The notes beneath the pieces are model-generated. The model was not told the origin of the DNA. It ran no database searches and saw only the letters and a program-made list of their open reading frames with translations. A program made the position numbers and the translations under genes. From contig CAVXPZ010000003.1 in the NCBI GenBank assembly GCA_963763775.1, forward strand, positions 512,001 to 576,000: DNA of 64,000 nt, read 5' to 3'. Shown here piece after piece: positions 1 to 16,427 of the stretch (positions are counted from its first letter, which is position 1; the number at the start of each line of letters is the position of its first letter). This stretch comes from an uncultured Chloroflexia bacterium (lineage in GTDB: Bacteria > Chloroflexota > Limnocylindria > Limnocylindrales > CSP1-4).

Positions 1-1
1 G

Positions 2-292
2 GCCGACGGGTTCGAGGTCGTCGGCGACGCCTCGGACGGCAGCACCGGGCTCGCGGCCGCGCGCGCCCTGCGGCCGGACCTCGTGCTGCTCGACATCGGC
101 CTGCCGGACGTCGAGGGCTTCGACGTGGCCCGCGAGCTCGCCGTCGACGGTCCGCCGCCGCTCGTCGTCCTGACGTCCAGCCGCGAAGCCAGCGCCTACG
201 GCCCGCGCCTCGCCGATAGCCGGGCCCTCGGCTTCATCCCCAAGGACGAGCTCTCCGGCGCGGCGATCCGGGCCCTCGTTGACGGCCGATGA
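2..292 (+). CDS. response regulator receiver protein (5' partial)
   Basis: Open frame from the window edge: [13 protein letters not shown]...[12 protein letters not shown]...LTS...FIPK, receiver motifs. Confidence 0.85.
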
Positions 293-942: not shown

Positions 943-978
943 GCAGGGTCTGCCCCGACCCGCGGTCGCGGGACTCCC

Positions 979-1010
979 CCGATGGCACGGCGCCGCACGG
1001 TCGCGATCGT
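979..1010 (+). promoter_or_regulatory. putative promoter motif CCGATG-N20-GATCGT
   Basis: Same motif and spacing recur at 1823-1854 upstream of the next gene. Confidence 0.35.
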
Positions 1011-1062
1011 GGTCGCAGGCCTCCGAACCCCGGGGCACGCATCACCGAAGGGAGCACCCACC

Positions 1063-1689
1063 ATGTCCACGCAGCCGATCTCCCGGATCGCCGGCCCGGT
1101 CGCCCTCGGCGTCGGCGCCGTGCTGCTGGTCCAGCAGCTCGTCATGGCGTCGATCCTCGACCGGACGCAGATCGAGACGACGATGGCGAACCCCCTCTAC
1201 CTCCCGAGCGCGATCGCCTACTTCTTCGCGTTCTGCGGGCTGCTCGTGTCGCTCGTCGCGGCGTACAGCTGGGAGTCCGAGGCCGCCGGCAAGGTCGGCG
1301 TGGTCGGGTTCGTCGCCGCGCTGGTCGGCACGATGTTCCTCACCGGCGACCTGTGGTTCGAGGCGTTCGCCGTGCCGTGGCTGGGCGATGTGGCGCCGGC
1401 GTCCCTCCACCTCGCCGGCGGGACCCTGATGGTCGGTGCGTTCATGAGTTACGTGCTGTTCGCTGCCGGTTGGGTCCTCTTCGGTCTCGCGAGCTTCCGG
1501 GCTCGAGTCTTCCCGCGGCCGATCTCCGTCGCGATCGTGGTCGGCGGGGCCATCGGGTTCCAGGCGGCGATGCCGCCGTTCGCGATCCCGCTGGCGATCG
1601 CGGTCGGATGTCTCGGGGCCTGGATGGTCCGGACCACGTCGACCGCGCGCGAGCCGGGCCCTGCCGCCGCGCTCGTGCCGGCCGCCTAG
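1063..1689 (+). CDS. multi-pass membrane protein, unknown function
   Basis: RBS AAGGGAG, MSTQPISRIAG start, about 6 hydrophobic segments. Confidence 0.8.
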   Translation: MSTQPISRIAGPVALGVGAVLLVQQLVMASILDRTQIETTMANPLYLPSAIAYFFAFCGLLVSLVAAYSWESEAAGKVGVVGFVAALVGTMFLTGDLWFEAFAVPWLGDVAPASLHLAGGTLMVGAFMSYVLFAAGWVLFGLASFRARVFPRPISVAIVVGGAIGFQAAMPPFAIPLAIAVGCLGAWMVRTTSTAREPGPAAALVPAA

Positions 1690-1822
1690 CTCCAGGAGGA
1701 TCCCGACGGCGGGGTCCGGTCGCGGCGAGGGCCGCATCGACCGGGCCCCGTCGTCGCACGTTCGGCCCTCGGACGGGTCCGCGACTTTAGGTGATGTCCG
1801 GTGGGGTCGTTGGGTCGATCGA

Positions 1823-1854
1823 CCGATGCCCGGGCAGCCGCCCCAGGCGAGAGT
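1823..1854 (+). promoter_or_regulatory. putative promoter motif CCGATG-N20-GAGAGT
   Basis: Matches the motif at 979-1010. Confidence 0.35.
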
Positions 1855-1911
1855 CGTAGGCAACGGCCTCACCCCCGATGACGGCCGAAATCGACCAGGA
1901 GGGATCGAGAC

Positions 1912-2231
1912 ATGACCGCACAGATGACCACCCAGCCGGCCGGTTCCGGGATCCGCGTCGCCCCGGCGATCGTGGCGATGATCGCCGTCCTTGCCTTCGC
2001 CGCCGGACTCGCGCTCGCCCACATCGATCGCCCCGGGCGCAGCGACCACCGCGCGCGGACCGGCGGCAGCCCGCTGCGGTGACGGCCGTCGACGCCGCGG
2101 TGCCCGCCGCGCGCGCCGGCGCCCTGACGGTCGCCCCGGCCTACGAGGCCGCGCACCGGGCGCTCCCGAACAAGCTCGACAGCCTACTCGTCGCTCACGG
2201 GCGACACCAAGGTCACGCTCGACAGCCGTGA
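1912..2231 (+). CDS. small membrane-anchored/secreted hypothetical protein (apparent frameshift near 2040-2070)
   Basis: AGGAGG RBS; MTAQMTTQ...IVAMIAVLAFAAGLALAH hydrophobic N-terminus; plausible continuation AVTAVDAAVPAA...HARQP in another frame. Confidence 0.45.
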
Positions 2232-2377
2232 GCTCGCCGCGGGCCGCGCTCGCTGAGGATCGCCTGGCGGCCGTCGAGCCGCGCCGGAACCTTTCGAGGC
2301 CGATCGTGGTGACCCACGGTCGGCCTCGTCGTCTGTTCGGCCGCCCGTCTCGTCAGGCGCCCGCCCGCGCGACGCGT

Positions 2378-2944
2378 CTACCCGGCGACGGGCTTGAGCA
2401 ACGCGTACTCGCCGTCGTAGCGGACCTGGAGGCTGTTGTTGAACAGGTTGAGCATGTTGATGTAGCCGACCAGGAACGTCAGCTCGACGAGTTCCGGGTC
2501 GCTGAAATGCTCGTGGACCTGCTGGACGAGCGACTCGGGGAGCCGGTTCGAGTCGGCCATCACGGCCCTCGTGTACTCGATCGCGAGCCGCTCGCGGGGC
2601 ACGAGCGCGTCCGTGTGCTCGATGACGTGGAGCGGGTCCTGGACGATGTCCGCGATGTCGACCAGGTCGCAGTGCGAGAACGTGCAGAACTGGCACTCGT
2701 TGGTCTTGGAGGCCGTGATGATCACGAGCTCCTTGACCCGGCGTTCGAGCAGGCCGCCCGGGTAGACGCTGTTCCCGAATCCGGCGAAGGCGCGCAGGAT
2801 CTCGGGCCGCAGGCACATCGCCTGGATCATCTCGACCGGCGGCCGGCCGCGCTCCCAGAGGCCCCGACTCTCGTCGAAGGACGGGTCGTCCTTGACGGCC
2901 TCGAACGCGGACTGGATCTGCTCCGGCGTGACGGTGACGCGCAT
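2378..2944 (-). CDS. carboxymuconolactone decarboxylase / AhpD-like peroxidase-related protein
   Basis: GGAGG RBS; KELVII..S..NECQFC..SH CxxC motif; ELVELTFLVGYINMLN. Confidence 0.85.
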   Translation of the reverse strand: MRVTVTPEQIQSAFEAVKDDPSFDESRGLWERGRPPVEMIQAMCLRPEILRAFAGFGNSVYPGGLLERRVKELVIITASKTNECQFCTFSHCDLVDIADIVQDPLHVIEHTDALVPRERLAIEYTRAVMADSNRLPESLVQQVHEHFSDPELVELTFLVGYINMLNLFNNSLQVRYDGEYALLKPVAG

Positions 2945-3190
2945 CGATGGACCTCCTGCAAGGGACGGCAGGGTACCGCGGGAGCGATGTGGTGGGCGCG
3001 GTGTCGTCACCGGGGACCGAGGGGTACTAGCAGTAGCCGTTCTGACGACGCGTTCCTCGTGGACGGAGGCGAATCCGACGTCGGAACGTCGAGTTCGCTC
3101 GAGCACCACGCTGGAATATCCAAGGATCGGTCACTGATGGTACCCGGGCACGGGGGCACGACCTGAGCGACGCCGACGCTTCCGCTAAGC

Positions 3191-3208
3191 TGGTTGTGTG
3201 CACAACCA
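3191..3208. promoter_or_regulatory. palindromic operator TGGTTGTG-TG-CACAACCA
   Basis: Perfect 8-bp arms right after a TAAGCT -10-like hexamer upstream of the DsbA gene. Confidence 0.55.
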
Positions 3209-3250
3209 TGCGGCCCGACCCGGTCGATCCCGATCCCGACAGCGACGTTC

Positions 3251-3896
3251 GTGATCGTCGAGATCTGGTCCGACGTGGCTTGTCCGTGGTGCTACATCGG
3301 CAAACGGCGCTTCGAGCGCGCACTGGCCGACTTCGATGGCGCCGAGGACGTCGAGGTCACGTGGCGGAGCTACCAGCTCGACCCGACGATCCCGCGCGGC
3401 ATCGCGGACGCCGCATGACGAGTCGCTCGCCGCGAAGTTCGGCGCGACCCCCGACCAGATCCGGGTCATGAACGAGCGGGTCGTGACGCTCGCCGCCGAG
3501 GAAGGCCTCGAGTACCACTTCGAGCGCTACATCACGGTCAACACCTTCGACGCGCACCGGATGACGCACCTGGCGGCAGCGCATGGCCTCGGGGCGGCGA
3601 TGCACGAGCGGCTCTTCCGGGCGCAGTTCGTCGAGGGCGAGGTCCTCGACGACCCGGACACGCTCGTCCGTCTGGCGGGCGAGGTCGGCGTCCCCGCCGA
3701 CGAGGCTCGACGCGCGATCGAGACCGACGCGTTCGCCAGCGAGGTCGCCGAGGACATCGATGAGGCTCGGCGCATCGGCGTGAGCGGCGTCCCGTTCTAC
3801 GTCCTCGACCGCCGGTACGGGATCTCCGGCGCCCAGCCGACCGAGCTGTTCCTCGAGGCCCTTCGACAGGCCCGGGCGACCGCCATCATCCCGTGA
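3251..3896 (+). CDS. DsbA-family oxidoreductase (FrnE-like), frameshift near 3410
   Basis: VEIWSDVACPWCYIGKRRF in one frame; NTFDAHR...GVSGVPF...ISGAQP in the next. Confidence 0.85.
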
Positions 3897-3994
3897 TGGA
3901 CGACTGGGCGACCTTCGACGACGCCCGGTCGGCGACGATCGCGCTCATCGACTGAGTCGGCCGACGCGGCCGAAGTCGCTGGATCGCCGGACCC

Positions 3995-4436
3995 TCAGCT
4001 CGCGGCTTGCTTCACCAGATGCCGCGATCCGCTCCTCGACCTCGGGGGTCAGCTCGAGCACGGCGTAGGCATTCGGCCACATACGGCCGTCGTCCAGCCG
4101 AGCGTCCGGCTGGAACCCGAGGGTCGCGTAGCGCACCTTGAACTTGGACGCCGGCTGGAAGAAGCAGATCGACTTGCCGTCCTTCGCGTAGGCGGGCATC
4201 CCGTACCAGGTCTTCGACGTCAGCTCCGGCGCGGCCGCCTTGACGATCTCGTGGATGCGTGCGGCCATGCTGCGGTCCGGCTCCGACAGCTCGGCGATCT
4301 TGGCGAGCACGTCGGCCTCGCCGGCCGCATCGTCGGCGCCGCGCTTCGCGTCCCGTTTGGCTTCCGCCGCGGCCTCCCGCATCGCGGCCTTCTCCTCGGC
4401 GGTCCAGATCTGGGTCTTCGCGGGCTTCGTTGCCAT
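3995..4436 (-). CDS. DUF1801/YdhG-like protein (1-nt frameshift near C-terminus)
   Basis: [32 protein letters not shown]; removing one base gives IAALVKQAAS*. Confidence 0.8.
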
Positions 4437-4542
4437 GGGTGGTTCCTCGCTTCCGGCAGTCGTGGTGACAACGATGCTAGTCGCCACTCGGCCCTCGGGC
4501 TTCTCGAAACGTGACCGAGTCGCCTGGCGCCGCCGTGGCAGA

Positions 4543-4927
4543 TCAGCTCGACATCGGCTCGGGCTGCCAGAGCTCGATCTTCGTGCCCTCCGGGTCGACG
4601 ATGTGCGCGAAGCGGCCGTTCGGCTGGTCAGGGAACACGGTCGCCTCCACGCCGTGCGTGGCGCAGCTGGCCAGGATGCCGTCCAGATCGTCGACGGCGA
4701 GGTTGAGCATGAAGTCCTTCGCCGATGGCTCGAAGTAGGTCGTGTCGGCCTCGAACGCGCTGAAGACCGTCCCGGCGCCCGGCTGGGCGGCCATCGCCTC
4801 CGGTCGGAAGACGACACCGCCCCAATCCTCGACCTCGAGGCCGAGGACATCGCGGTACCAGGCGATGAGGGCGGCCGGGTCCGTCGCCTTGAAGAACACG
4901 CCGCCGATCGCCGAGGACCCTGGCCAT
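4543..4927 (-). CDS. VOC/glyoxalase-family protein (frameshift near start)
   Basis: MARVLG(I)GGVFFKA..P..L..WY..LG; NLAVDDLD; [19 protein letters not shown]. Confidence 0.85.
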
Positions 4928-4953
4928 CCGAACCTCCTTGACCTCGATGCTGT

Positions 4954-5783
4954 TCAGGCGACGCCGTCGCGGTCTCGCCGTCTGGCGAGGCCCTCGAGCT
5001 GCCCGGCGTGCACGTCGCTCACCCACTCCCAGCCGGGCGCGGCCGATGGCCCGATCCGCGGGTCGCTTGGGACCGTCGCGTCGCGCAACGCGCACACGTA
5101 CGCCCGATCCAGGTCGATCCGCGCTTGGAGCTGCCCAGCGTCGCCGATGGACCCGTGGCCCGGGACGAGCGACATCGACGTCGCCCGCCACGCCCTCGAG
5201 CAGTCGCAGCGCGGCGAGGTAGTCCTCGATCGGGTCAGTCGGCGCTCAGGTCGAGCATCGGGATCAGGACATCGGAGAGCATGTCGCCCGCGACGAGCAC
5301 CCGGCGCGCCTCGATCACCAGCGCCGCATGGCCGGGGGCGTGCGCTCGATGCTCGATGATCCGGACGAGCGGGCCATCCCACGGGATCCGTGCCGCCTCG
5401 GCGGGCAAGCCGGTGACGAGACCGAGCAGGTCCAGGGGGACGTCGTCGGCGATCTCCGGCGGCAGCTCCTCGGCCTCGCGGGCCTTCCAGTCCGGGTCCG
5501 ACATCTGATCGCGGACCGACGCCGCGCAGCGGGCGGTGGCGTACCGGGGGGCGACGCCGAGCCTGGCGTGCCAGAGCAGGTGATCCCAATGCGGATGCGT
5601 CGAGAAACCCGCCACGACGGTCTGGCCCGCATCGGCGAGGTCGTTCGCGAGGCAGTCCATCTCGGCGCCGGTCACGCCCGGGTCGATGAGCAACGTGCCG
5701 GCGCGGCCCTGCACGACCACGGCGTTGCTCTGGAGGAACTCGCTCTGGTGGACCAGCACGCCGTCCGCGACCTGCGTCAGCAC
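4954..5783 (-). CDS. MBL-fold metallo-hydrolase (frameshift near 5235)
   Basis: [26 protein letters not shown]; continues to LVPGHG in another frame. Confidence 0.85.
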
Positions 5784-5832
5784 GGGTGGCTCCTTCCGCT
5801 GGTGGTTGGCATCCGATCCACGTGCGGATGGT

Positions 5833-5855
5833 CGTCGCGGGCGCTACCCACGACG
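5833..5855 (-). terminator. hairpin just downstream of the outer tRNA 3'-end copy (possible native tRNA-Arg terminator)
   Basis: CGTCGTGGGT-AGC-GCCCGCGACG on the minus strand, a few nt after ...GCGCCA; no clear U-tract. Confidence 0.4.
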
Positions 5856-5861
5856 TCGGTG

Positions 5862-5960
5862 ATGGCGCGCCCGACAGGTGTTGGAGCGCGATCTGCAACC
5901 TACACCATCCCGATCGAGGGTCGCGATGAGTGGCTGGCCGCGGCGAGGCGCCTAGCGTGA
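5862..5960 (+). pseudogene. displaced C-terminal tail of a putative att-split recombinase, copy 1
   Basis: MARPTGVGARSATYTIPIEGRDEWLAAARRLA*; 99-bp homolog of 11150-11248. Confidence 0.6.
5863..5878 (-). repeat. att core copy 1 (tRNA-Arg 3' end CCTGTCGGGCGCGCCA)
   Basis: TGGCGCGCCCGACAGG identical to 16118-16133. Confidence 0.9.
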
Positions 5961-6328
5961 GGCATCGCCCCGCCGTGTGCGCGACCGACCGGGAGGTCGT
6001 CGTCGTGGCCGCGGTCCTCGAGTCCGGGTCGGAGAAGGCGGCCGCCCATCGCCTCGGCCTGTCACATTCCACGGTCAAGCACCACCTGGCGAATGCGTGG
6101 TCGGAGGTCGGAACAGAGACGACGACGCAGCTCGTATGGATCCTGGTTCCTGGCCTGCCGGAACCGGAGGGCGGGAGTCGACGGAACGTGTCGCGGTCGG
6201 AATCGGGTGTCGCAATATGGAACGATGCCGCGCGACCTGCCCTCATAGTGTCGAATGCGGCCGCCGGCCGCGACACAGTGGGACATCGCAATGCAGCGCG
6301 ACCTCGTCCTCCGCGCGGCGACCGGTGA
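5957..6328 (+). CDS. small LuxR-C-terminal-like HTH protein (3' part probably read-through)
   Basis: GTGA overlap with the tail stop; TDREVVVVAAVLESGSEKAAAHRLGLSHSTVKHHLANA HTH. Confidence 0.6.
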   Translation: MRHRPAVCATDREVVVVAAVLESGSEKAAAHRLGLSHSTVKHHLANAWSEVGTETTTQLVWILVPGLPEPEGGSRRNVSRSESGVAIWNDAARPALIVSNAAAGRDTVGHRNAARPRPPRGDR

Positions 6329-6846
6329 CCACGACGCGTTCGCGTCGCTGGCGACCGGTGCCTACGAGCGGCTCCACCGAACCGCGCAGCTGATCCTCCG
6401 CCGCGAGGACCTTGCGTCGGACGCCGTCCAGGAGGCGCTCACCTCGGCGTGGCTGCACATCCGGGCCGTCCGTGACCCAGACCGCTTCGACGCCTGGCTC
6501 AACCGCCTGGTCGTGCGCGCCTGCTACGAGGAGCTCCGTCGAGCGAAGCGAAGGCCGATCCAGGTCCGCGTGGACTTGCTCGAGGGACCGGGGGTCGAGG
6601 ATTTCGACCGTGGCTCTCGCGGATCGGGACCAGCTGGAGCGCGGCTTCCAGCACGTCTCCGTCGACCATCGAGCGGTCCTCGTGGTCCACCACTACTTGG
6701 GACTGGCGGACGCTGATGCCGCGGTAGTCCTGGGCATCCCCATCGGCACCTACAAGTCCCGTCTCAATCGCGCCCACCTCTCGCTGCGCGCGGCCCTCGA
6801 GGCCGACGCCCGCGTGGCCGGGATCGGCCAGGAGTCCATCGCATGA
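6291..6846 (+). CDS. ECF sigma-70 factor (frameshift near 6605)
   Basis: LVLRAATGDHDAF, ASDAVQEA, FDAWL, GIPIGTYKSRLNRA; GGAAC...CCTCATA ECF-like promoter at about 6219-6247. Confidence 0.88.
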
Positions 6847-8090
6847 CTGCCCAGAACGACCTCGACCGGGCCCTCGGCGCGTGGCTCCACGGGGACGCCA
6901 CGACCGCGCCACCGCCCGAGCCCCTGGCTCGAGCGATCGAGTCGACCCGCCACCTCCGCCCACGGCCCGCCCCCGTCGCGCGGATCGGCAGCTCCTGGGT
7001 CGGGTCGGGCGAGAGCAACCGCGTCCTCAGCGGTATCCGCGGCCTTCGGCCCGCTCTTCTCGTCGCGCTCGTCGCGCTGCTCGCCCTGGCACTCGTCGGC
7101 GGGGCCCTTCTGGTCGGGGGCCGGCTACTGCCTCGCCCGCCCGCGCCGCACGCGTACGCGGACCGGTTCGCGTCGTTGCCCGATCTGCCGACGCCGGTTG
7201 GCTCGCCGATCGTCGTCGAGCTCCAGGACGGCCGCGTCCTGGTCGTCGGGAGCATCTTCGGGCTGACGCCGTTCGTGTACGACCCGACGACGAGCACGTC
7301 GGTGGCGACCGGCCCGGTGCTGTCGGCGGACGGCATCCTCGGCAATGCGGTCCGCCTTCGCGACGGGCGCGTCCTCCTCACGGGGGACGGGGTCTCCCAA
7401 GTGTTCGACCCCGCGACGATGTCGTTCGCACCGACCGGGCCGATGGTGACGGCGCGCTCGTTCCCGATGCTCGCGACGCTGCCCGACGGACGGGTGCTCG
7501 TTGCCGGAGGCGTTCAGCCCGGGACCGACACGCGGATCCACTCGGCGGAGCTGTTCGACCCCAAGACGCTGACGTTCTCACCGACGGGCTCGATGGCCTA
7601 CGACGCCGGCGACCTCGTCACGTTGCCAGACGGCCGGGTCTTCGTCGCCTCCAGCCCCAACGCCGAGATCTACGACCCTCGGTCCGGGACGTTCGCCTTC
7701 GCCGGTGTCCTCCCGAACGGTGTCACGGGCGCGACCGCCCTCCCCGATGGCCGCGTCGTGCTCGTCGGGGTCTTGAGCGTCACGGGGATGCAGTCCAACG
7801 GCTTCGTCGGGGTCTGGGACCCGGCGGGATCGACGTACCGGGAGCTGTGGGGCGGATCTCAGTCGCATCCGCTCTGGAGCGCGAGCACCCTCGACGACGG
7901 CCGAGTCCTCGTGACCGGTGGGCGCCCAGCCGCCTGGGCCGGTGTCCTCGATCCGGCGACCGGGCAGATGAAGCCGGTCACGCCGCCAGCCTGGAGCCGG
8001 CCCACGGTCACGCGACTCTCCGATGGCAGGGTGCTGATCGTCGGCGGGATGGACGACGGCGCCGGATCGACCGTGCAGGTCTTCCAGTGA
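6843..8090 (+). CDS. membrane-anchored Kelch-repeat protein, putative anti-sigma factor
   Basis: ATGA overlap with the sigma gene; one TM helix; repeated LxDGRVLVxGG...FDPxT Kelch blades. Confidence 0.8.
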   Translation: MTAQNDLDRALGAWLHGDATTAPPPEPLARAIESTRHLRPRPAPVARIGSSWVGSGESNRVLSGIRGLRPALLVALVALLALALVGGALLVGGRLLPRPPAPHAYADRFASLPDLPTPVGSPIVVELQDGRVLVVGSIFGLTPFVYDPTTSTSVATGPVLSADGILGNAVRLRDGRVLLTGDGVSQVFDPATMSFAPTGPMVTARSFPMLATLPDGRVLVAGGVQPGTDTRIHSAELFDPKTLTFSPTGSMAYDAGDLVTLPDGRVFVASSPNAEIYDPRSGTFAFAGVLPNGVTGATALPDGRVVLVGVLSVTGMQSNGFVGVWDPAGSTYRELWGGSQSHPLWSASTLDDGRVLVTGGRPAAWAGVLDPATGQMKPVTPPAWSRPTVTRLSDGRVLIVGGMDDGAGSTVQVFQ

Positions 8091-8148
8091 ACCTGCTCGG
8101 TCACTGTCGCGACTACGAGCGGATCGCCGCGGCCTCGCGGCTCCGCGC

Positions 8149-8325
8149 ATGAGGGACGGTCACTTGCGGGGCTCGCTGACCCGACCCGCAACGCAGTCCC
8201 AGATGGATGTGCTCGCGGCCTTCGTCGCTGCAGGAGGATCGGTCCAGGGCGCCGGCGAGCTCGTGGGCATTCAACCAGGCGGCCGTGCACAGACCCACGA
8301 CGCAACTGGCACTCGGCCGAGGTAG
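8149..8325 (+). pseudogene. truncated paralog of the 11245 HTH gene, preceded by a decayed recombinase tail
   Basis: MRDGHLRGSLTRPATQSQMDVLAAFVAAGGSVQGAGELVGIQP versus MRDGYQRGVLPPQATRRQMDVLAAYVAAGGSVHDAADLVGIRP; upstream frame ends ...ERIAAASRLRA* with ATGA overlap. Confidence 0.7.
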
Positions 8326-8353
8326 GAACGACAAGGCGCAGCTCGTACGTGGG

Positions 8354-8785
8354 TCAGTCGGAACGGTTTGTCTGCTTCGTCATCGCGTCCCTAACGCGAG
8401 CGGTGTCCACGAACTGCTCGAACCGGACGATGCGCCCGGCTCGCACGACGAAGTGATGGGCGACCCGGCATGCCAGAGTGTTGCCCGTGACACGGTGGGT
8501 CGCGGTATATCGAGCAAGAACGACGACGTCCTCTCCATCGACCACGTAGGTGTCGTCATGCGCGGTCCACTCGTCCCACTCCCGCCCAAGCGCTTCCATG
8601 ACGTTCGTGGTGACACCCTCCGGAGTCCGATACGTCCCGCCGAGCGGGAAGCCGGACATCTCGGTCCACTCCACGTCGGGTGCCAGGGTCTCCCGGAGCG
8701 CTGCCAGATCACCCGCGGCGGACGCGAGGTACTGCCGGCGGACGACGTCCGCGGGTGAGGATCCGTCGGCCTCGATCAGCCCCAC
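8354..8785 (-). CDS. SnoaL/NTF2-like protein
   Basis: LAPDVEWTE..GFPLGGTY; RIVRFEQFVDT. Confidence 0.88.
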   Translation of the reverse strand: MGLIEADGSSPADVVRRQYLASAAGDLAALRETLAPDVEWTEMSGFPLGGTYRTPEGVTTNVMEALGREWDEWTAHDDTYVVDGEDVVVLARYTATHRVTGNTLACRVAHHFVVRAGRIVRFEQFVDTARVRDAMTKQTNRSD

Positions 8786-9582
8786 GTCATCTCTCCCTTC
8801 GCCACCTTGGATCCAAGGCCGGCGGCGACCACCAGGCCGGCATTCGGGTAGGCGGCGATCAGCGCCGCCTCGAGCGCCGCACCGTCGCGCGACTCCGACA
8901 CGAGGGCTTCAAAGCTCTCGAGATACGCGCGGGTGTGGCTGATCGCCGTCGTGTCGGTGGGCGCGCCGGCCGCGCGGTGGCCGGCGACGACGAACGCCGG
9001 CGACAGCGCCAGCAGGTCCTCCAGTACGCGGATCCACTCGGCGCGGAGCTCGGTCGTCGCGGAATCAGCAGTCCAGACGTGCAGGCCCTCGAACAGGAGC
9101 ACCCCGCCGAAGAGCGAGCGGCTTCCCGGCTCCCAGAGGAACCACGCGCGATCGCCGAGCTGGTCGCTCCCGCGCCGGACCTGGATCGTGGTCCCGTCGA
9201 CCGTGAGGGTCGTCCCGCCGAGCTCCTCGATCTCGACGAGCCGTGTCGGCAGGTTGGCGCCGAGGTGCGCCCAGGCCTTCAGCTTTCCCTCGTAGCTGGC
9301 GCGGATATGGTCGATCACGTCGGCAGGGGCGACGAATCGGGCCTCGGGGAAGGCGTCGGCGATGACCTCGGCGCCGAAGTAGAAGTCCGGGTCGCCGGCG
9401 CTGATGACGACGGTGTGGAGCGTCCTGCCCGAGTCGAGGACGGCGGCTGCGATGCGGTGGCCGTCGGCGCGGGTGAAGGCGGCATCGACGACGAGGGCCT
9501 CGGTGTCACCGGCCACGAGGACGCTCGTCTTGTGGAGTGACGTCGGGGCGCTGTCGAGAATGGAATAGGTCAGTGCGGTCAT
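8776..9582 (-). CDS. MBL-fold metallo-hydrolase (degenerate metal motif ISAGDPDF)
   Basis: LVVDAAFTRADG, ISAGDPDFYFG, HVWTAD, VVAGH; AAGGA RBS. Confidence 0.85.
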   Translation of the reverse strand: MTALTYSILDSAPTSLHKTSVLVAGDTEALVVDAAFTRADGHRIAAAVLDSGRTLHTVVISAGDPDFYFGAEVIADAFPEARFVAPADVIDHIRASYEGKLKAWAHLGANLPTRLVEIEELGGTTLTVDGTTIQVRRGSDQLGDRAWFLWEPGSRSLFGGVLLFEGLHVWTADSATTELRAEWIRVLEDLLALSPAFVVAGHRAAGAPTDTTAISHTRAYLESFEALVSESRDGAALEAALIAAYPNAGLVVAAGLGSKVAKGEMTWG

Positions 9583-9678
9583 GGTGTCCTTCACGGTGCA
9601 AGCGGCTGGAACGGCACGGTCAGCGTAAGACCGCAGGTCTTGTGGGTCACGGTCGGGACAGGGCGTACGATGGTGAAA

Positions 9679-10563
9679 ATGCGACAGACAGATCGACCCG
9701 GCATCCGCCCCGTCCAGTTCGCCTCGGGGCAGGAGGTCGTGGCCGGGATCGAGGTGATGACCCTGGCGACCATGCGTCGGCGCGCGGGCCTCTTGGAGTT
9801 CCGCGACCCTCAGCGCCTTGGGTTCGACCTCCTCATCCGAATCGACAGCGGCACGGCCGTCCACACGGTCGACCTCGTGGCCTACGACCTTGCCCCAGGC
9901 GACACGATGTGGATCCACGCGGGCCAGGTCCAGCAGTGGGGAGACATCGCCGCGATCGATGGGCCGGTGGTGCTGTTCACGCCCCAGGCTCTCGATGCGG
10001 ACACGCTCCTGCGGATCCGCGCCACGGGAATGGCGCTTCGAAGCGACTTTCCGATGGGATCTGCGGGGTCAGGCCAGGACCTCGCCTGGTCGTACTTGCG
10101 CCACTGTGCGTCGCTCGCCGCTGGGGTGCCGCAGGCCCTCGGGATCGCCCTCGTGGCCCGGTCGCTCGCGGCGCTGCTCTTGGAGCTAGTGGCTGGGGCG
10201 GTCGGCCCCGGAACGGCCCGTCGCCAACCCGCCGAGGACTTCCTCCGGCTGCGTGACGCGATCGAGGATGGCTTCACCACCGAGCACCGGGTCGCGGCGT
10301 ACGCGCGACGTCTCGGCTACTCGACCCGCACCGTCGACCGCCTCGCACGGGCCAACGCGGGCCTGACGGCGAAGGCCCTGATCGACGAGCGCGTGGTCCT
10401 CGAGGCGCAGCGGATGCTCGCTCACGGAGACGACTCGATCGCCGCGATCGGGGGTGCTCTGGGGTTCGACGATCCGTCCAACTTCTCGAAGTACTTCACC
10501 AAGCGTGTCGGCACCACGCCGGCGGCCTCCCGCCGGCGCGCCAGGGGAGAAGAGGCGACCTGA
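9679..10563 (+). CDS. AraC-family transcriptional regulator
   Basis: C-terminal VAAYARRLGYS...IAAIGGALGFDDPSNFSKYFTKRVGTTP; divergent from the MBL gene. Confidence 0.9.
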   Translation: MRQTDRPGIRPVQFASGQEVVAGIEVMTLATMRRRAGLLEFRDPQRLGFDLLIRIDSGTAVHTVDLVAYDLAPGDTMWIHAGQVQQWGDIAAIDGPVVLFTPQALDADTLLRIRATGMALRSDFPMGSAGSGQDLAWSYLRHCASLAAGVPQALGIALVARSLAALLLELVAGAVGPGTARRQPAEDFLRLRDAIEDGFTTEHRVAAYARRLGYSTRTVDRLARANAGLTAKALIDERVVLEAQRMLAHGDDSIAAIGGALGFDDPSNFSKYFTKRVGTTPAASRRRARGEEAT

Positions 10564-10584
10564 TCCGCGTGGGCTGCGCGAGGC

Positions 10585-10998
10585 TCAAGCCCCGATGCGA
10601 ACGTTGAGTTGGAGCCCGAGGGCAACCCCCAGGACGATCCAGCCAAGTGCGCCGCCGACGAGCAGCAGGATCCGGGCAAGGTTCCGGTCGGTCGGCGAAG
10701 CATCGGCCGCGATCTGCTCCGAGAAGACGGCGAGGGCGGCGACCAGAAAGGCGATGATGCCGCCGACGAACGCGCCCGCGACGAACATCGCCAGGACGCC
10801 ACCGGTCACGGCGACGACGCGGACGAACCGCGTGGAGCGTGACGCGGTCTGGCCGTGACGCTTCTCGACGTCGGCTGTGCCGATGACGATCCCGGTTGCG
10901 ATGGCGAACGGCCACGCCCACAGCGTGAACGGGGCGAGCACTCCGATCGCGACTGCGACGACCAGGTGTCGTCCGATCTGGAATCCCGTGGTCTCCAT
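10585..10998 (-). CDS. small membrane protein, unknown function
   Basis: 137 aa with 4 hydrophobic segments. Confidence 0.65.
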   Translation of the reverse strand: METTGFQIGRHLVVAVAIGVLAPFTLWAWPFAIATGIVIGTADVEKRHGQTASRSTRFVRVVAVTGGVLAMFVAGAFVGGIIAFLVAALAVFSEQIAADASPTDRNLARILLLVGGALGWIVLGVALGLQLNVRIGA

Positions 10999-11149
10999 TG
11001 GGCGCCTCGGCCGGACGGGTCCGCCGAACGGCGGACGGCATTGCCATGATGACGCGGCGGGCGCCCGGTCGTGACTTGCCTGCTCGACGGTGTTCGCTTT
11101 GCTGGCGAGGTCAGGGACATCCCAATGAAGCGAACGAATGCAAGTGTTC

Positions 11150-11248
11150 GTGGCGCGCCCGACAGGTGTTGGACGCGCGATTTCAACCTACACCATCCCG
11201 ATCGAGGGGCACGACGAGTGGCTGGCCGCTGCTAGGCGGCTGGCATGA
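11150..11248 (+). pseudogene. displaced C-terminal tail of a putative att-split recombinase, copy 2
   Basis: VARPTGVGRAISTYTIPIEGHDEWLAAARRLA*; homolog of 5862-5960. Confidence 0.6.
11151..11166 (-). repeat. att core copy 2 (tRNA-Arg 3' end)
   Basis: TGGCGCGCCCGACAGG identical to 16118-16133. Confidence 0.9.
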
Positions 11249-11493
11249 GGGACGGGTACCAGCGCGGGGTGCTTCCGCCGCAGGCGACGCGGCGCCAGAT
11301 GGACGTGCTTGCCGCCTACGTCGCCGCCGGCGGGTCGGTCCACGACGCGGCCGATCTCGTGGGTATCAGGCCCAGCACCGTCAAGCGGCACCTCGCCGAC
11401 CTACGAGCGCGGTCGGGACTGACGACCGAGCAGCTGATCTATTCGGGCCGCGCCCTTGGTTGGCTCGTCGTCCCGAGCCTGGAGCCAGCGTGA
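11245..11493 (+). CDS. small LuxR-C-terminal-like HTH protein (82 aa)
   Basis: ATGA overlap with the tail stop; TRRQMDVL...AADLVGIRPSTVKRHLADLRARSG..TTEQLIY. Confidence 0.75.
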   Translation: MRDGYQRGVLPPQATRRQMDVLAAYVAAGGSVHDAADLVGIRPSTVKRHLADLRARSGLTTEQLIYSGRALGWLVVPSLEPA

Positions 11494-11585
11494 TCTCTTG
11501 GATGCAGGCTGAGCCCCCGCGCGCGACCCCGAGTGCCCATCGCTCGCTCAAGCCGGACTATGCGCCAACCACTCTCGCTCCGCAG

Positions 11586-12293
11586 TCAGGCCGTGCCGAT
11601 GGGATCGGCACGGTCGGGCGACGCCCGGAGGCTGTCCAGACCGGCGAGGATCAGATCGAGACCGAAGTCGAACTCGCTGGCGAAGTCGTAGCCGGCCTTG
11701 CCCACGTGCTCGGCAACGGACTCGGCGAGGTAGGGATAGTCGTCAGCGGGGAACTGGCTGAGGATCTCGATCGCCAACTTGTCGACCTGGTCCGTGCTTT
11801 CGAAGGGCAGGGTCTGCTCTTGCAGCGCGAAGCCGAAGATGAAGCTGTCGAGCAGGGTGAAGGCGTGAACGGCCATCGCGACGGAGAAGCCAGCCTGCCG
11901 CAACGCCCCTATCACCATGTCGTGGTATCGCATGTTGCCCGGGCCTGGATGGACGCGGGACTGGATCACCCCCAGCGCCCAGCGGTGACGCGCGAGCACT
12001 TCGCGGATCGAGTTGGCTTGCTGACGCATCGCCCCTTTCCAGTCTGACCCTCCGGCGGTGACGTCGATCTCCTCGTACATCACGTCGACCATCGCGTCGA
12101 GCAGATCGTCCTTGTTCGCGAAGTGGTTGTAGAGCGCCATGGGGTATACCCCCAGCTCCTGGGCGACGTTCCGCATGCTGAGCGACTCGATCCCGCCTTC
12201 ATCAGCGAGCTTGATGGCCGTTCGGAGCACTCGCTGCCGGCTGAGTGGGACTCGTCGTCTGGTCCTCGATCGTTGCTTGACAGACATTTGCAT
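11586..12293 (-). CDS. TetR-family regulator (TetR_C type)
   Basis: LSRQRVLRTAIKLADEGGIESLSMRNVAQELGV.PMALYNHF; EFDFGLDLILAGL. Confidence 0.92.
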   Translation of the reverse strand: MQMSVKQRSRTRRRVPLSRQRVLRTAIKLADEGGIESLSMRNVAQELGVYPMALYNHFANKDDLLDAMVDVMYEEIDVTAGGSDWKGAMRQQANSIREVLARHRWALGVIQSRVHPGPGNMRYHDMVIGALRQAGFSVAMAVHAFTLLDSFIFGFALQEQTLPFESTDQVDKLAIEILSQFPADDYPYLAESVAEHVGKAGYDFASEFDFGLDLILAGLDSLRASPDRADPIGTA

Positions 12294-12312
12294 CCCTCTC
12301 GGCACCTGGGTC

Positions 12313-12370
12313 TTGACGTATGTACGCTGTACATCTAATGTACGCCGTATTGGCGATGTACGCCGTACAT
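12313..12370 (+). promoter_or_regulatory. sigma70 promoter (TTGACG-17-TAATGT) overlapped by three TetR operators ATGTACGCnGTACAT
   Basis: Palindromes at 12320-12334, 12338-12352 (imperfect) and 12356-12370, period 18 bp. Confidence 0.85.
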
Positions 12371-12385
12371 TAGCAGGAGACCACC

Positions 12386-13414
12386 ATGAAGGCAATCGTT
12401 CAACCAACCTATGGCTCACCCGATGACCTGCAGCTGCGCGACATCGACCAGCCCACGATCGGCGACCACGACGTGCTGGTGCGCGTGCATGCCGCGTCGG
12501 TCAACACCGCCGACCGGCTCATCCTGCGCGGCCGCCCCTATCTGATGCGCGCCGCGGGCTCCGGACTCGGCTTTAGCCCGCGTCGACCCCAGTTCGCCGT
12601 CGCGGGCACGGACCTCGCCGGTCGTGTGGCGGCGGTAGGCAGTCTGGTGACCGCCTTCCGCCCCGGCGACGAGGTGTACGGGAGCGTCCCCGGCGCGATC
12701 GCGGAGTACGTCGCGGCGCCGGACACCGCCCTGGCGGCCAAGCCGTCGAGCCTCAGCTTCCAACAGGCCGCCGCGATGCCGCTGGCCGCGCTCACCGCAC
12801 TCCAGGGGCTTCGCGATGCCGGACAGGTCCAGCCCGGGCAGCGGGTTCTGATCAATGGGGCCTCGGGCGGCGTCGGCACCTATGCGGTGCAGATCGCCAA
12901 GGTCCTGGGCGCCGAGGTGACCGCGGTGACCAGCGGCCCGAACGTCGAGATGGTTCGATCACTCGGCGCCGACCACGTCATCGACTACACCAGCGAGGAC
13001 TTCACGGAGTCAGCCAGTCGGTATGACGTCATCCTGGACCTTGTGGGCAACCACTCACTGTCGGCTCGACGACGCGCGCTGACCGCGACGGGCACGCTGT
13101 TGCTGTCATACGTCGGTACCAACCGCTGGGTGGGGCCGTTCGGTCACATCCTGGCTGCCGTGGTGCTGACGCGGTTCACGAGCCACAGGATCGTCTCGTT
13201 CACGACCGCTCCGAGCAGTGCCGACCTGCTCGTCCTTGCGCAGCTGACAGACGACGGAAAGATCGTGCCGGTCATCGACCGGACCTACCGCCTCGACCAA
13301 GCAGCCGAGGCGATCCGCTACCTGGAACTCGGACGTGCCCGGGGCAAGGTCATCATCAGCATCAGCGACCGCGGCGCGCTGGCCGCGCTGACGCCGGCGA
13401 GTGTGGCGTCGTGA
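12386..13414 (+). CDS. NAD(P)-dependent MDR-family oxidoreductase (quinone reductase-like)
   Basis: VRVHAASVN, VLINGASGGVG, VIDYT, ARGKVII. Confidence 0.92.
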   Translation: MKAIVQPTYGSPDDLQLRDIDQPTIGDHDVLVRVHAASVNTADRLILRGRPYLMRAAGSGLGFSPRRPQFAVAGTDLAGRVAAVGSLVTAFRPGDEVYGSVPGAIAEYVAAPDTALAAKPSSLSFQQAAAMPLAALTALQGLRDAGQVQPGQRVLINGASGGVGTYAVQIAKVLGAEVTAVTSGPNVEMVRSLGADHVIDYTSEDFTESASRYDVILDLVGNHSLSARRRALTATGTLLLSYVGTNRWVGPFGHILAAVVLTRFTSHRIVSFTTAPSSADLLVLAQLTDDGKIVPVIDRTYRLDQAAEAIRYLELGRARGKVIISISDRGALAALTPASVAS

Positions 13415-14067
13415 CGGCGCCAGCGATGCCAGTGGGGCCGTACGCGGCTCGTCTGACCATTGACTACCCCGAACGCCTTGATCGGGTCACGACCTTCTTT
13501 CGCCTGATCTGGGTCATACCGATCGCCATCGTGCTCGGAGTGATCACGGGGAGCGGGACCCAGATGATGGTCACCGCAGCCGGTGAGCAGATCGTCGGAG
13601 CCGGCGGTGGACTGCTCGCTGGCTTGGCTTTCGCCACGGCGCTGATGATCGTCATCCGCATGCGCTACCCGCGCTGGTGGTTCGACTTCGCACGGGAGCT
13701 GACCCGCTTCGGCGCCCGCGTCGGTGCCTACGTGGCCCTGCTCACGGACCGATATCCGTCCACTGTCGAGGAGCAATCGGTGCACCTCGAGATCGAGTAT
13801 CCAGAGGTCGATCGCGACCTGAACCGCTGGCTTCCACTGGTCAAGTGGTTCCTGGCGATCCCCCATTACGTCGCGCTGATCGTCCTGATCATCGGAGCGG
13901 CCCTCGCCATCGTGATCGCCTGGTTCGCGATCCTCATGACCGGGCGTTATCCCCAGCCGCTCTTCGACTACGTGGTCGGCGTCGGGCGGTGGAGCCTGCG
14001 CGTGAACGCCTACGCGTTCCTGCTCGTGACCGACCGCTATCCCCCCTTCAGCCTGAAAGCAGGGTAG
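13411..14067 (+). CDS. DUF4389 membrane protein
   Basis: Two YP..LFD...RW..RV.AY..LLTDRYPP repeats; LNRWLPLVKWFLAIPH. Confidence 0.88.
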   Translation: MTAPAMPVGPYAARLTIDYPERLDRVTTFFRLIWVIPIAIVLGVITGSGTQMMVTAAGEQIVGAGGGLLAGLAFATALMIVIRMRYPRWWFDFARELTRFGARVGAYVALLTDRYPSTVEEQSVHLEIEYPEVDRDLNRWLPLVKWFLAIPHYVALIVLIIGAALAIVIAWFAILMTGRYPQPLFDYVVGVGRWSLRVNAYAFLLVTDRYPPFSLKAG

Positions 14068-14069
14068 TC

Positions 14070-15227
14070 ATGCGAATCCTCCGAGAGCTCTCGCGGCGCA
14101 AGCTGCGCACGAGCCTGACCATCACCGGCATCACCATCGGCATCTGGGCACTCGTGGTGTTCAGTTCGCTGGCCAACCAGATCAACGGCCTCGTCGGCAT
14201 GGGCAGCGAATACTTCGCCGACAAGATCGTCGTCACCGACGGCGTGGCCTTCGGCTCGTCGCCGATGCGCCTCGACGACGTCGAGATCATCGCCGGCCTC
14301 GACGGCGTCGGTGCCGTCCAGCCCAAGGTCGAGATCCCGTGGGACCCCGATCCCGCTATCGGGTTCGGCGCGCCGGACTTCCTGGTCGGGACCATCCCGG
14401 GCGCCGACGCCGGGTTCGAGACGTTCACACCCGAGCTGGCCACGGGACGCCAGCTCATCGCCGAGGACACCGGCAACGTCGTGGTCCTGGGGTCGACCAT
14501 CGCCCGCAAGTACGGCGTCGTCGCCGGCGGGACGGTCGACATCCGAGGCGAGTCCTTCGAGGTCCTTGGGACCCTGCAACCCACCCTCAGCACGCCCGAC
14601 ACGAACGGCTTCATCCCGCTCTCGACGGCCCAGGCGCTGTACCTGGGCGACCTGCCCCCACTCGTCGCCGAGTCGCTCCAGGCGGACGAGCTGGCCAACC
14701 AGATCGTCGTCTTCCCCGAAGTCGGTGCCGACCCGACGACGGTGGCCGCGGCGATCGAGGCCGCGGTCGAGAACAGCGCGACCATGACCGGCGCCGAGTT
14801 CTCCAAGACGGTCGGCGCCACGACCGTGATCTTCAACGCGATCATCATCGGGGTGGCCGCCATCAGCCTCATCGTGGGCGGCCTGTCGGTGATCAACACG
14901 ATGGCCATGAGCGTGGCCGAGCGGACCCGCGAGATCGGCATCCGGCGGGCCATCGGCGGCTCCCGGCGACGCATCGTCCGCGAGCTCGTCGCCGAGGCCG
15001 GGGTCATCGGGCTGCTGGGCGGCCTGATCGGGCTCGGCCTGGGCGCTGCGGTCGTCGTCCTGGTCAACGAGGCCGGCCGATCGAGCGGCACCGTCCTCTT
15101 CGACCTCACCGCACAGACCGCGGCGTTCGCGGTCGGCTTCAGCACGATCCTCGGGATGGTGGCCGGGATCATCCCGGCCTGGACTGCCGCACGGCTCGAC
15201 CCGGTGTCGGCCCTGCGCTACGAATGA
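14070..15227 (+). CDS. ABC transporter permease (FtsX/MacB type)
   Basis: INTMAMSVAERTREIGIRRAIG; AARLDPVSALRYE. Confidence 0.92.
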   Translation: MRILRELSRRKLRTSLTITGITIGIWALVVFSSLANQINGLVGMGSEYFADKIVVTDGVAFGSSPMRLDDVEIIAGLDGVGAVQPKVEIPWDPDPAIGFGAPDFLVGTIPGADAGFETFTPELATGRQLIAEDTGNVVVLGSTIARKYGVVAGGTVDIRGESFEVLGTLQPTLSTPDTNGFIPLSTAQALYLGDLPPLVAESLQADELANQIVVFPEVGADPTTVAAAIEAAVENSATMTGAEFSKTVGATTVIFNAIIIGVAAISLIVGGLSVINTMAMSVAERTREIGIRRAIGGSRRRIVRELVAEAGVIGLLGGLIGLGLGAAVVVLVNEAGRSSGTVLFDLTAQTAAFAVGFSTILGMVAGIIPAWTAARLDPVSALRYE

Positions 15228-15256
15228 CCAACGACCGAACGACGAAGGAGCGAACG

Positions 15257-15979
15257 ATGAACCTGATCGAAGCGACCGACCTGCGCAAGACCTACCGGCT
15301 GTCGCGCCGGACCAGCATCGATGCCCTGCAGGGTGTTGACGTCAGCATCGCCGCCGGCGAGATGGTGGCGATCATGGGGCCGTCAGGCTCCGGCAAGAGC
15401 ACGCTCATGCACCTGCTCGGGCTGCTCCACGCGCCGGATACCGACGACGGCCCGGCCCCGACCCTGCGCATCGATGGGGTCGATGCGACGACCCTCTCGG
15501 ACGGCGAGCGAACGTCCATCCGGGCTCGATCGATGGGCTTCGTGTTCCAGTCCTTCAACCTGGTCCCGACGCTCACCGCCGAGGAGAACGTGGCCCTCGC
15601 CGCCGAGTATGCCGGGACGTCCGGTTCGGCAGCCCGTGTGGCTGCGCGCGCCTCGCTGGCGTCGGTCGGCCTTGCCGAGCGAGCGGGGCACCGGCCGATG
15701 GAGTTGTCAGGGGGCGAGCAGCAGCGCGTGGCCATCGCCCGTGCCCTCGTGAACGACCCGAAGCTGATCCTCGGTGATGAGCCGACGGGCAACCTGGATT
15801 CATCCCGGGCCGCGGAAGTCCTGGGCCTGCTCCGTCGCTTCAACCGTGAGCGCGGGCAGACCGTGCTCATCGTCACGCACGACCAGGAGGTTGGCGCCGC
15901 CTGCGACCGGATCATCCGGATGCGTGACGGGCGGATCATCGCCGACGAGCGCGTGGCGGACCTGCAGGTTGCCGCATGA
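15257..15979 (+). CDS. ABC transporter ATP-binding protein (LolD/MacB type)
   Basis: GPSGSGKS, LSGGEQQR, GDEPTGNLD, VTHD. Confidence 0.93.
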   Translation: MNLIEATDLRKTYRLSRRTSIDALQGVDVSIAAGEMVAIMGPSGSGKSTLMHLLGLLHAPDTDDGPAPTLRIDGVDATTLSDGERTSIRARSMGFVFQSFNLVPTLTAEENVALAAEYAGTSGSAARVAARASLASVGLAERAGHRPMELSGGEQQRVAIARALVNDPKLILGDEPTGNLDSSRAAEVLGLLRRFNRERGQTVLIVTHDQEVGAACDRIIRMRDGRIIADERVADLQVAA

Positions 15980-16182
15980 CGGCCGGAACGATGCGCGATC
16001 TGATGCACGCCATCTACGACCGGATCACGGTCGCCGGCCCGGTGATCGTGGGTGTCCGGCTGACCCAGGCGGCCTACGCGCACGGATTGGCGCTGGCTCT
16101 GCCCGAAAGGGTTGAAATGGCGCGCCCGACAGGACTCGAACCTGCGACCTTTGGGTCCGGAACCCAACGCTCTATCCACTGA
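15976..16182 (+). pseudogene. remnant of a putative large serine recombinase C-terminus reading through the att core into antisense tRNA
   Basis: RDLMHAIYDRITVAGPVIVGVRLTQAAYAHGLALALPERVE-MARPTG; MARPTG is in the same frame as the displaced tails; family assignment is inference. Confidence 0.5.
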
Positions 16183-16193
16183 GCTACAGGCGC
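16118..16193 (-). tRNA. tRNA-Arg(CCG)
   Basis: GCGCCTGTAGCTCAGTGGATAGAGCG-TTGGG-TTCCGGA-CCCAA-AGGTCGCAGGTTCGAGTCCTGTCGGGCGCGCCA, 76 nt. Confidence 0.97.
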
Positions 16194-16246
16194 GCGAGCG
16201 CCAAGGATACGACGCCGGCAGGCGATCCGGCCCTGATCACCCGGAC

Positions 16247-16281
16247 AAAAGCCGAGGCCGGCTCCCGAAGGAACCGGCCTC
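16247..16281 (-). terminator. intrinsic terminator of the ncRNA
   Basis: GAGGCCGGTTCC-TTCG-GGAGCCGGCCTC followed by GGCTTTT. Confidence 0.85.
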
Positions 16282-16427
16282 GATGCTGTCCCGGTGAAGG
16301 AGTCCGCTTGAACGGACACTTCTGCCACGCGTCAAAGGCATCTATCACGTCGGCTGCACCGACTACCCTGACCCTACCTACCCATGACCTTGACGCTGGG
16401 GCAGCTTGGCTGACTGAGCAGCATCGA
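16247..16427 (-). ncRNA. structured ncRNA, 6S RNA-like
   Basis: Closing stem TCGATGCTG/CAGCATCGA, central bubble with a GTCCG/CGGAC hairpin, long apical stem; own promoter and terminator; no credible ORF. Confidence 0.6.

Follow-up and report, generated by a model that had tools for sequence, protein, structure and literature searches.

In Limnocylindria (Chloroflexota), a small helix-turn-helix (HTH) gene lies directly behind the C-terminal codons of a large serine recombinase, and its start codon overlaps the recombinase stop codon. We propose that this gene is the last cistron of a recombinase operon that is taken apart when the element integrates, and that it encodes a regulator whose expression would follow the recombination state of the DNA; we put the probability of this reading as a whole at roughly 0.55. 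Its two parts differ in strength. The architecture, with the attachment site attP inside the recombinase gene and the HTH gene as a distal cistron split off by integration, is very probably correct, judging from the many loci compared. A state-dependent role for the HTH protein as a regulator is more tentative, and we would place it slightly short of even odds.

Results

Three modules share a stop/start overlap

The starting point was the window, by which we mean the whole 64-kb stretch of DNA that was analysed. A reading of its sequence alone had proposed that, in three modules, the stop codon of a short frame overlaps the start of a small HTH gene, and the overlap is indeed present at all three sites (GTGA at 5957, ATGA at 8149 and ATGA at 11245). 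Reading frames and sequence place the TGA of module 1 at 5958-5960 on a GTG start at 5957, the stop of module 2 at 8150-8152 on an ATG at 8149, and the TGA of module 3 at 11246-11248, closing a frame of 11153-11245, on an ATG at 11245. The division of the HTH genes into two subtypes was likewise borne out: the genes at 8149 and 11245 group together (64% identity over residues 1-45), and the gene at 5957 stands apart (47% identity to the gene at 11245, with a 7-residue segment absent from the 5957 gene). The relevant features of the window are as follows.

5865-5960, plus strand: module 1, att core (5865-5878) with recombinase tail and stop
5957-6328, plus strand: module 1 HTH gene, subtype 1, with its GTG start on the tail stop and homology extending to near 6200
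8113-8325, plus strand: module 2, about 12 tail codons and a frameshifted subtype-2 HTH pseudogene (ATG at 8149); repeat family D4
11151-11166, plus strand: displaced last 16 nt of tRNA-Arg(CCG), the B arm of attL, ending in the putative GG crossover at 11165-11166 (from the exact core, the identity boundary and the starts of soil contigs)
11153-11248, plus strand: displaced last 31 codons and stop of the large serine recombinase gene, called the tail (from the C-terminus in contiguous loci)
11167-11189, plus strand: P' half-site of the recombinase attachment site, inside the tail codons (same right arm as the L077 attP)
11245-11493, plus strand: HTH gene, subtype 2, 82 aa, intact, with a GerE/LuxR-type four-helix fold (from the open reading frame, homologs, dN/dS, AlphaFold2 and Foldseek)
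11586-15979, no single strand: cargo of a 5-kb integrase-less element, namely TetR (minus), zinc-type dehydrogenase (plus), DUF4389 membrane protein, MacB/FtsX permease and ABC ATPase (from Pfam and nucleotide identity)
15985-16133, plus strand: recombinase body remnant (~45 codons), with the P half-site at 16108-16131 and GG at 16132-16133; together with the tRNA, attR (from translation and sequence)
16118-16193, minus strand: tRNA-Arg(CCG), the integration target, its 3' end supplied by the element (from ARAGORN)

An exact 14-nt att core occurs at 5865, 11153 and 16120 in the window, and the 16 nt of 11151-11166 are the same as the 16 nt of 16118-16133. The three copies are homologous and so do not represent three independent events. 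Moreover, the HTH gene opens with ATG or GTG followed by AGR, so that this start by itself places a TGA in the adjacent frame.

Modules 1 and 3 have in common a conserved 31-codon stretch before the stop. Between them, this tail carries about 9 synonymous and about 8 non-synonymous changes (dN 0.16, dS 0.60, dN/dS ~0.30), a pattern indicating that it has evolved as coding sequence. Both modules carry a Shine-Dalgarno-like AGGCGG within the last tail codons, at -11 to -6 relative to the HTH start. Module 2 is degenerate: about 12 tail codons are recognisable, its HTH frame is broken after about residue 45, the Shine-Dalgarno-like AGG is gone, and no att core with two or fewer mismatches was found there. 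Module 2 is a decayed pseudogene.

We considered and rejected an RNA element in the conserved stretch upstream of the HTH gene; an Rfam scan of 5000-12500 returned a chance-level match (E 0.71), and the substitutions are those of coding sequence. A scan of 10900-11700 for sigma-70 consensus promoters and terminators gave 0 sites against 0.0 expected, a result that is uninformative in this G+C-rich phylum. Module 1 is followed by an ECF sigma factor in two frames, one (6255-6716) carrying region 2 and the other (6412-6846) a region-4-like part; the split reflects either a frameshift or an assembly error. A Kelch-repeat protein (6843-8090) follows the split sigma factor.

Long contiguous frames identify the tail as a recombinase C-terminus

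Traced upstream from the tail, the frame extends into a long protein in nine loci, and in four of the loci compared (L077, L116, L117 and L119) the tail forms the C-terminus of recombinases of 321-521 aa, the full-length proteins having 500 aa. One such 500-aa protein (L129:5479-6978) matches Pfam Resolvase (PF00239; 41.5 bits, cut-off 23.3) over residues 19-161, the position of an N-terminal catalytic domain, as well as PHROG 95 'integrase' over residues 10-457 (E 5.9e-40); its match to the Pfam Recombinase domain (PF07508) scores 19.2 bits, below the cut-off of 21.1. Because long contiguous frames with Resolvase and PHROG 95 matches end in it, we identify the tail as the C-terminal end of a large serine recombinase. 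The suggestion that the tail is a displaced recombinase C-terminus thus holds up from both directions, through contiguous recombinase-tail-HTH forms (L077, L187 and others) and through forms in which the recombinase reads into a tRNA gene (46 of 79 recombinase loci). These enzymes form a family of large serine recombinases of Limnocylindria.

The displacement has a sharp edge: in 34 other tail loci, relatedness of the upstream sequence breaks off immediately before the residues ARPTG. Alignment puts a second recombinase lineage at 30% identity to the recombinase associated with tRNA-Arg (Arg-type). A model of the full-length L119 recombinase with its native tail, built from alignment A4, has a mean pLDDT of 61; the tail is below 50, so that its folding cannot be read from the model. 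Upstream of the recombinase gene, we also looked for a palindrome resembling an operator; what is conserved at that position is a small coding frame, with no obvious operator. The L150 contig, checked for circularity, has no terminal overlap and is a decayed chromosomal copy.

That small frame (~60-70 codons, containing ...DPLVAALARYVEALHRRYPDGPDQLRRE...) ends by a GTGA or ATGA overlap on the recombinase start, at L129:5230-5480 and in 14 other loci.

attP lies inside the recombinase gene and matches the 3' end of a tRNA gene

The natural contiguous attP of L077 consists of two 23-nt arms, 78% complementary, with the 2-nt GG between them, and is thus a 23+2+23 bp imperfect palindrome. It has the layout of a serine-integrase attP, with two imperfect inverted half-sites around a central dinucleotide, and it is contained in the recombinase gene, some 31 codons short of the stop. 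The GG of attP marks the end of identity to the tRNA, and it is there that we infer the crossover to take place.

In the 46 loci noted above, the recombinase body reads into tRNA-Arg(CCG), which lies on the opposite strand, and at least 20 of them keep an open frame of about 500 codons that ends in 20 tRNA-encoded residues. The C-termini therefore differ between the free and the integrated form: the native 31 aa in one, 20 tRNA-encoded residues in 500-aa frames in the other. The recombinase remnant of the window reads in the same way into the reverse complement of tRNA-Arg(CCG) at 16118-16193.

The arrangement extends to other targets. In the second recombinase lineage, a different conserved tail stands behind a 16-nt copy of the 3' end of tRNA-Pro(CGG) and is followed by ATGA and the HTH gene; in a third, the recombinase reads into tRNA-Glu(TTC) in one locus. 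Placement of attP within the gene and targeting of a tRNA 3' end are a habit common to several lineages. The loci of these other lineages that read into tRNA-Pro(CGG) and tRNA-Glu(TTC) are L038:7170-7520, L187:4373-5650 (minus strand) and L098:7620-7990.

HTH genes mostly, though not always, follow recombinase tails

The association was counted from both sides. On the HTH side, 80 loci were fetched, of which 3 had no placeable start, leaving 77. Upstream of these we found 44 tails of the Arg type, 12 of the Pro type, 8 holin genes with an overlapping stop and 13 other contexts; inspected by eye, the last group includes about 8 holin contexts with an earlier stop and 1 frameshifted Arg-type tail. 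The HTH gene thus stands behind a recombinase tail in 56 of 77 loci, both recombinase lineages included, and behind a holin in about 16 of 77. In 64 of 77 (44 + 12 + 8), a recognisable upstream gene ends in the start overlap, in three unrelated contexts.

On the recombinase side, 38 native tails were found, 2 of which are at contig ends, so that 36 have room downstream. An HTH gene lies within 120 nt of 29 of these 36 tails (16 of the 5957 type and 13 of the 11245 type), and the remaining 7 precede a different gene; in L119, for example, this is a ParB-like gene that has an ATGA overlap of its own. HTH genes of the 5957 type stand behind tails in L112, L116 and the G001 genome. The expectation that HTH homologs keep to the neighbourhood of attachment sites and recombinases was accordingly upheld for the majority (56 of 77 HTH loci, 29 of 36 tails), but not as an invariable rule, given the holin contexts and the tails that precede other genes.

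In two of five genomes with intact recombinases (those of L140 and L147), the HTH was not matched at E≤0.001; these are metagenome assemblies and possibly incomplete, so that absence of the gene is not proven by this search. Many of the matches to the HTH and the recombinase are found close to or at the end of a contig, and many fall on contigs of only 0.5-6 kb, as is expected if multi-copy elements break metagenome assemblies.

The HTH protein belongs to a narrow, conserved family with a GerE-like fold

The HTH has homologs in more than 3000 clusters (84-98% identity), and by record titles nearly all of these belong to Chloroflexota of the Limnocylindria group. The family is narrow: among 1.84 billion representatives, 463 clusters match at E≤0.001. 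With the window copy as reference, median dN/dS is 0.14 at dS 0.85 (66 of 73 pairs); by this pattern of substitution, the HTH is evidently a real gene under strong purifying selection. The HTH partners of the two recombinase lineages are 82% identical, compared with 30% for the recombinases themselves.

Pfam matches of the 11245 HTH all fall below cut-off (HTH_30, 22.5 bits; HTH_1, 21.6 bits; GerE, 19.6 bits, PF00196 cut-off 23.5), as does the GerE match of the 5957 HTH (22.1 bits). The AlphaFold2 model of the 11245 HTH (pLDDT 84.5) has helices at residues 16-27, 32-39, 43-57 and 61-71. The best Foldseek matches to this model are the DNA-binding domains of GerE, DegU, LiaR and VraR (TM 0.74-0.80 by target, rmsd 1.7-2.2), with E-values of only 0.02-0.13; against GerE (1fse), TM is 0.80 by target with an rmsd of 1.8 over 66 columns, in keeping with a tetrahelical fold. 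A profile search of solved structures gave weak LysR and FixJ matches. Like the C-terminal DNA-binding domains of the GerE/LuxR-FixJ group, the protein has a four-helix fold with the HTH in helices 2-3; unlike them, it stands alone, is narrowly distributed, scores below threshold in Pfam and carries a conserved C-terminal GWLVVPSLEP. A complex prediction that paired the HTH (alignment A2) with the 321-aa L077 recombinase (alignment A3), run with no controls, gave no answer (score 0.00) and has no bearing either way.

A 5-kb element without a recombinase has spread between genomes

Module 3 is the left end of a discrete element (11151-16133) that has no recombinase of its own and consists of the HTH gene, TetR, zinc-type dehydrogenase, DUF4389 protein, MacB/FtsX permease, ABC ATPase and the 45-codon recombinase remnant. 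The window at 11150-15490 is 98.8-99.6% identical in nucleotides to seven of the eight foreign loci tested, which come from different species-level genomes; the eighth, L034, gave no match. Identity to the seven begins at 11141-11153, and the left flanks are unrelated. In two of these foreign genomes, a recombinase remnant follows the HTH at a distance of about 4.9 kb, as in the window.

The same element can be followed in sequencing runs. Twenty runs from 15 studies each contain at least half of the sampled words of 10900-16400; one of these runs is possibly the source sample. Contigs from four soil runs of four studies cover 11151-16134 and start at 11151, with unlike sequence beyond; one of them continues past 11151 into 14 letters resembling the recombinase P arm. 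None of the contigs in these four runs covers 10900-11083, and missing cover proves nothing. We take these near-identical copies to mean that the 5-kb element moved recently between species, and since it lacks a recombinase of its own, it would have been moved in trans.

A search of the genome to which the window belongs found no intact recombinase of the family, only the two tails, the remnant at 15994-16143 and a remnant at a contig start. All three modules of the window are relics, and because none has a working recombinase, nothing in the window can switch. The contig start in question is that of contig 3, to which the window belongs; a second, inverted HTH-TetR-oxidoreductase copy (98.75% nucleotide identity) lies there within bases 1-6392 (L002, L108), together with the recombinase remnant. 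This copy is homologous to module 3 only from 20 nt before the HTH start onwards; another frame ends on its ATGA.

Elements of about 9 kb were seen at L188 (G001 contig 3, reverse strand) and L129:127-1285, with genes for an amidase-LysM endolysin, holin, HTH, HNH, ParB-like and DUF3631/primase proteins and a recombinase. No virion genes were seen in them, and they resemble satellites or defective phages arrayed in tandem at tRNA-Arg.

Discussion

A proposed operon split by integration

The existence of both contiguous and tRNA-reading forms implies that, in a circle or tandem array, the HTH gene is a distal, overlapping cistron that integration moves to the other end of the element. The order there would be recombinase body, attP, tail and then HTH behind a 4-nt overlap, and the HTH would probably be co-transcribed and co-translated as the last cistron of the recombinase operon. 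A crossover with the 3' end of tRNA-Arg(CCG) would let the recombinase body read into the tRNA, acquiring 20 new C-terminal residues, and would carry the tail and HTH to the far end, which is what the window presents three times. Since recombination takes place inside the element's own integrase gene, insertion into the tRNA separates the putative HTH regulator from the integrase, and the HTH would lose the drive of the recombinase operon. The earlier proposal that the HTH is the second cistron in the circle and is cut off in the integrated state agrees with the gene order on both counts (contiguous in L077 and L187; reading into a tRNA in 46 of 79 loci).

There is no room for a promoter before the HTH gene in three unrelated contexts (two kinds of tail and the holin), so it looks like a promoter-less terminal cistron. 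We therefore suggest a transcription regulator whose synthesis would follow whichever operon it ends, that of the recombinase or that of lysis; behind a recombinase tail, it would be switched by the recombination event itself. The topology of tail and operon is well supported by the loci compared, and a role of the HTH as a regulator is plausible. Several observations count against this explanation. The HTH is intact in the integrase-less element and in the second copy of the same genome, with its unrelated upstream frame, which fits expression of its own equally well; about 16 of 77 HTH loci lie behind a holin; 7 of 36 tails precede another gene; two genomes with intact recombinases, possibly incomplete metagenome assemblies, gave no HTH match at E≤0.001; and the GerE scores in Pfam stay under the curated cut-off.

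Alternative roles for the HTH protein

The first of these observations leads to the strongest alternative, in which the HTH is a constitutively or independently expressed regulator, for example an immunity-type repressor of the whole element family, and the overlap is compact packing without switching. We judge this unlikely, and on present evidence a family-wide regulator with its own expression cannot be separated from the preferred reading. It would account for the intact HTH genes just mentioned, for the many copies per genome (18 matches in G001, 11 in G004) and for the great uniformity of the HTH sequence across divergent elements. Contigs from an RNA library also cover the HTH gene, though the library possibly contains DNA and so does not imply transcription. 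Yet 64 of 77 loci leave no promoter spacer, in the three unrelated contexts; the 99%-identical copies are too young to reveal selection for retention; and module 2 has been allowed to decay.

The sequence-only reading had named a recombination directionality factor (RDF) as one candidate role. Such a protein would bind the second DNA-binding domain and coiled-coil region of the recombinase, permit excision between attL and attR, and block recombination of attP with attB. In its favour, the HTH is small and element-encoded and adjoins the recombinase in the circular order at 29 of 36 tails, in two recombinase lineages; according to the portions of two papers drawn on here (PMC12286644, PMC11795197), known serine-integrase RDFs share no common fold, and some are moonlighting DNA-binding proteins. 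The operon logic, however, runs the wrong way: the circle, which has to integrate, would make the HTH along with the recombinase, and the integrated state, which has to excise, would have it uncoupled. An RDF would also have to be reconciled with the holin contexts (~16 of 77), with the other genes that take its place after 7 of 36 tails, with the two metagenome-assembled genomes in which intact recombinases were found and the HTH was not (E≤0.001), and with 82% identity between the partners of recombinases that are only 30% identical. The small conserved frame overlapping the recombinase start is equally well placed and is an alternative RDF candidate. The directionality-factor role is thus unsupported for the HTH, and we consider it improbable.

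Least probable of all is that the HTH is passenger cargo with no part in the life cycle of the element, for instance by regulating the ECF sigma/anti-sigma pairs nearby or other genes of the host or the cargo: genes downstream of it do vary (TetR and oxidoreductase in the window; LuxR-hydrolase, sigma/anti-sigma or DinB elsewhere) and ECF sigma pairs adjoin HTH genes in the window and in G001, but two recombinase lineages that differ in their tRNA targets both retain it right behind the att-containing tail, whereas the true cargo is exchanged.

Relation to known integration systems

For the split operon that we prefer, the integration-dependent switch of mycobacteriophages offers the nearest logic, with the roles of the two genes exchanged and another enzyme family. 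In the BPs type, as set out in the sections of PMC3694055 used here, attP lies in the repressor gene, integration changes the repressor C-terminus, and the promoter PRep drives rep and then int. The likeness to our elements is in an attP within the 3' end of a coding gene, two alternative C-termini and a downstream cistron parted from a shared promoter (same sections of PMC3694055). The BPs type has a tyrosine integrase, with the repressor split and int displaced, whereas in Limnocylindria a serine recombinase is split and a putative regulator displaced; a C-terminal degradation tag was moreover demonstrated in the phage system (PMC3694055, in the part cited).

Precedents for an attP inside the integrase gene itself come from other enzymes. 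In the myxophage Mx8, attP lies within the coding sequence of IntP, and integration makes a new 3' end of int without inactivation; this is a bacterial precedent, unlike ours in that the enzyme is a tyrosine recombinase and that the portion of the work cited describes no coupled downstream regulator (PMC6070905). The integrases of Mx8 and SSV are both described, in an excerpt of PMC4383910, as extending across attP. Self-disrupting recombinases are exclusively archaeal according to a passage of one review (PMC8371274). The 'suicidal' SSV integrases that it treats there resemble ours in having the recombination site inside an integrase gene that is partitioned on integration, and differ in being archaeal tyrosine recombinases whose split form is thought to be inactive. 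The Limnocylindria recombinase, in contrast, swaps only the last 31 of about 500 codons for 20 that are tRNA-encoded, and many copies keep an open 500-codon frame.

Among large serine integrases, those of phiC31, Bxb1 and SPbeta share with the Limnocylindria enzymes the Resolvase catalytic domain, a probable recombinase domain and an attP of about 48 bp with imperfect inverted half-sites and a central dinucleotide. In these model phages, attP lies outside int. Serine-family integrases were not known to target tRNA genes as of the 2014 Islander paper, in the part consulted (PMC4383910). Those described here differ from the ones known in 2014 in targeting tRNA-Arg(CCG) and tRNA-Pro(CGG), with one lineage reading into tRNA-Glu(TTC). 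A search of open-access text turned up neither a later account of serine integrases at tRNA genes nor any description of these Limnocylindria elements.

Implications

Serine integrases are major tools of genome engineering, and the control of their directionality is an open topic. A more far-reaching version of the split operon can be imagined, in which a single crossover exchanges the 31 C-terminal residues of the enzyme for tRNA-encoded ones and at the same time unplugs a coupled GerE-type regulator, so that the state of the DNA would set both the form of the enzyme and the level of the regulator, giving directionality control without a classical RDF; we offer this as speculation, and it is more doubtful than the split operon itself. 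If true, control would follow a new logic, in which integration rewrites the C-terminus of the enzyme responsible for it and also disconnects a regulator, and serine integrases would be extended to tRNA targets. It would also document a class of small islands that is abundant and recently mobile in a soil lineage both dominant and uncultured, with the 5-kb derivative present in runs from 15 studies.
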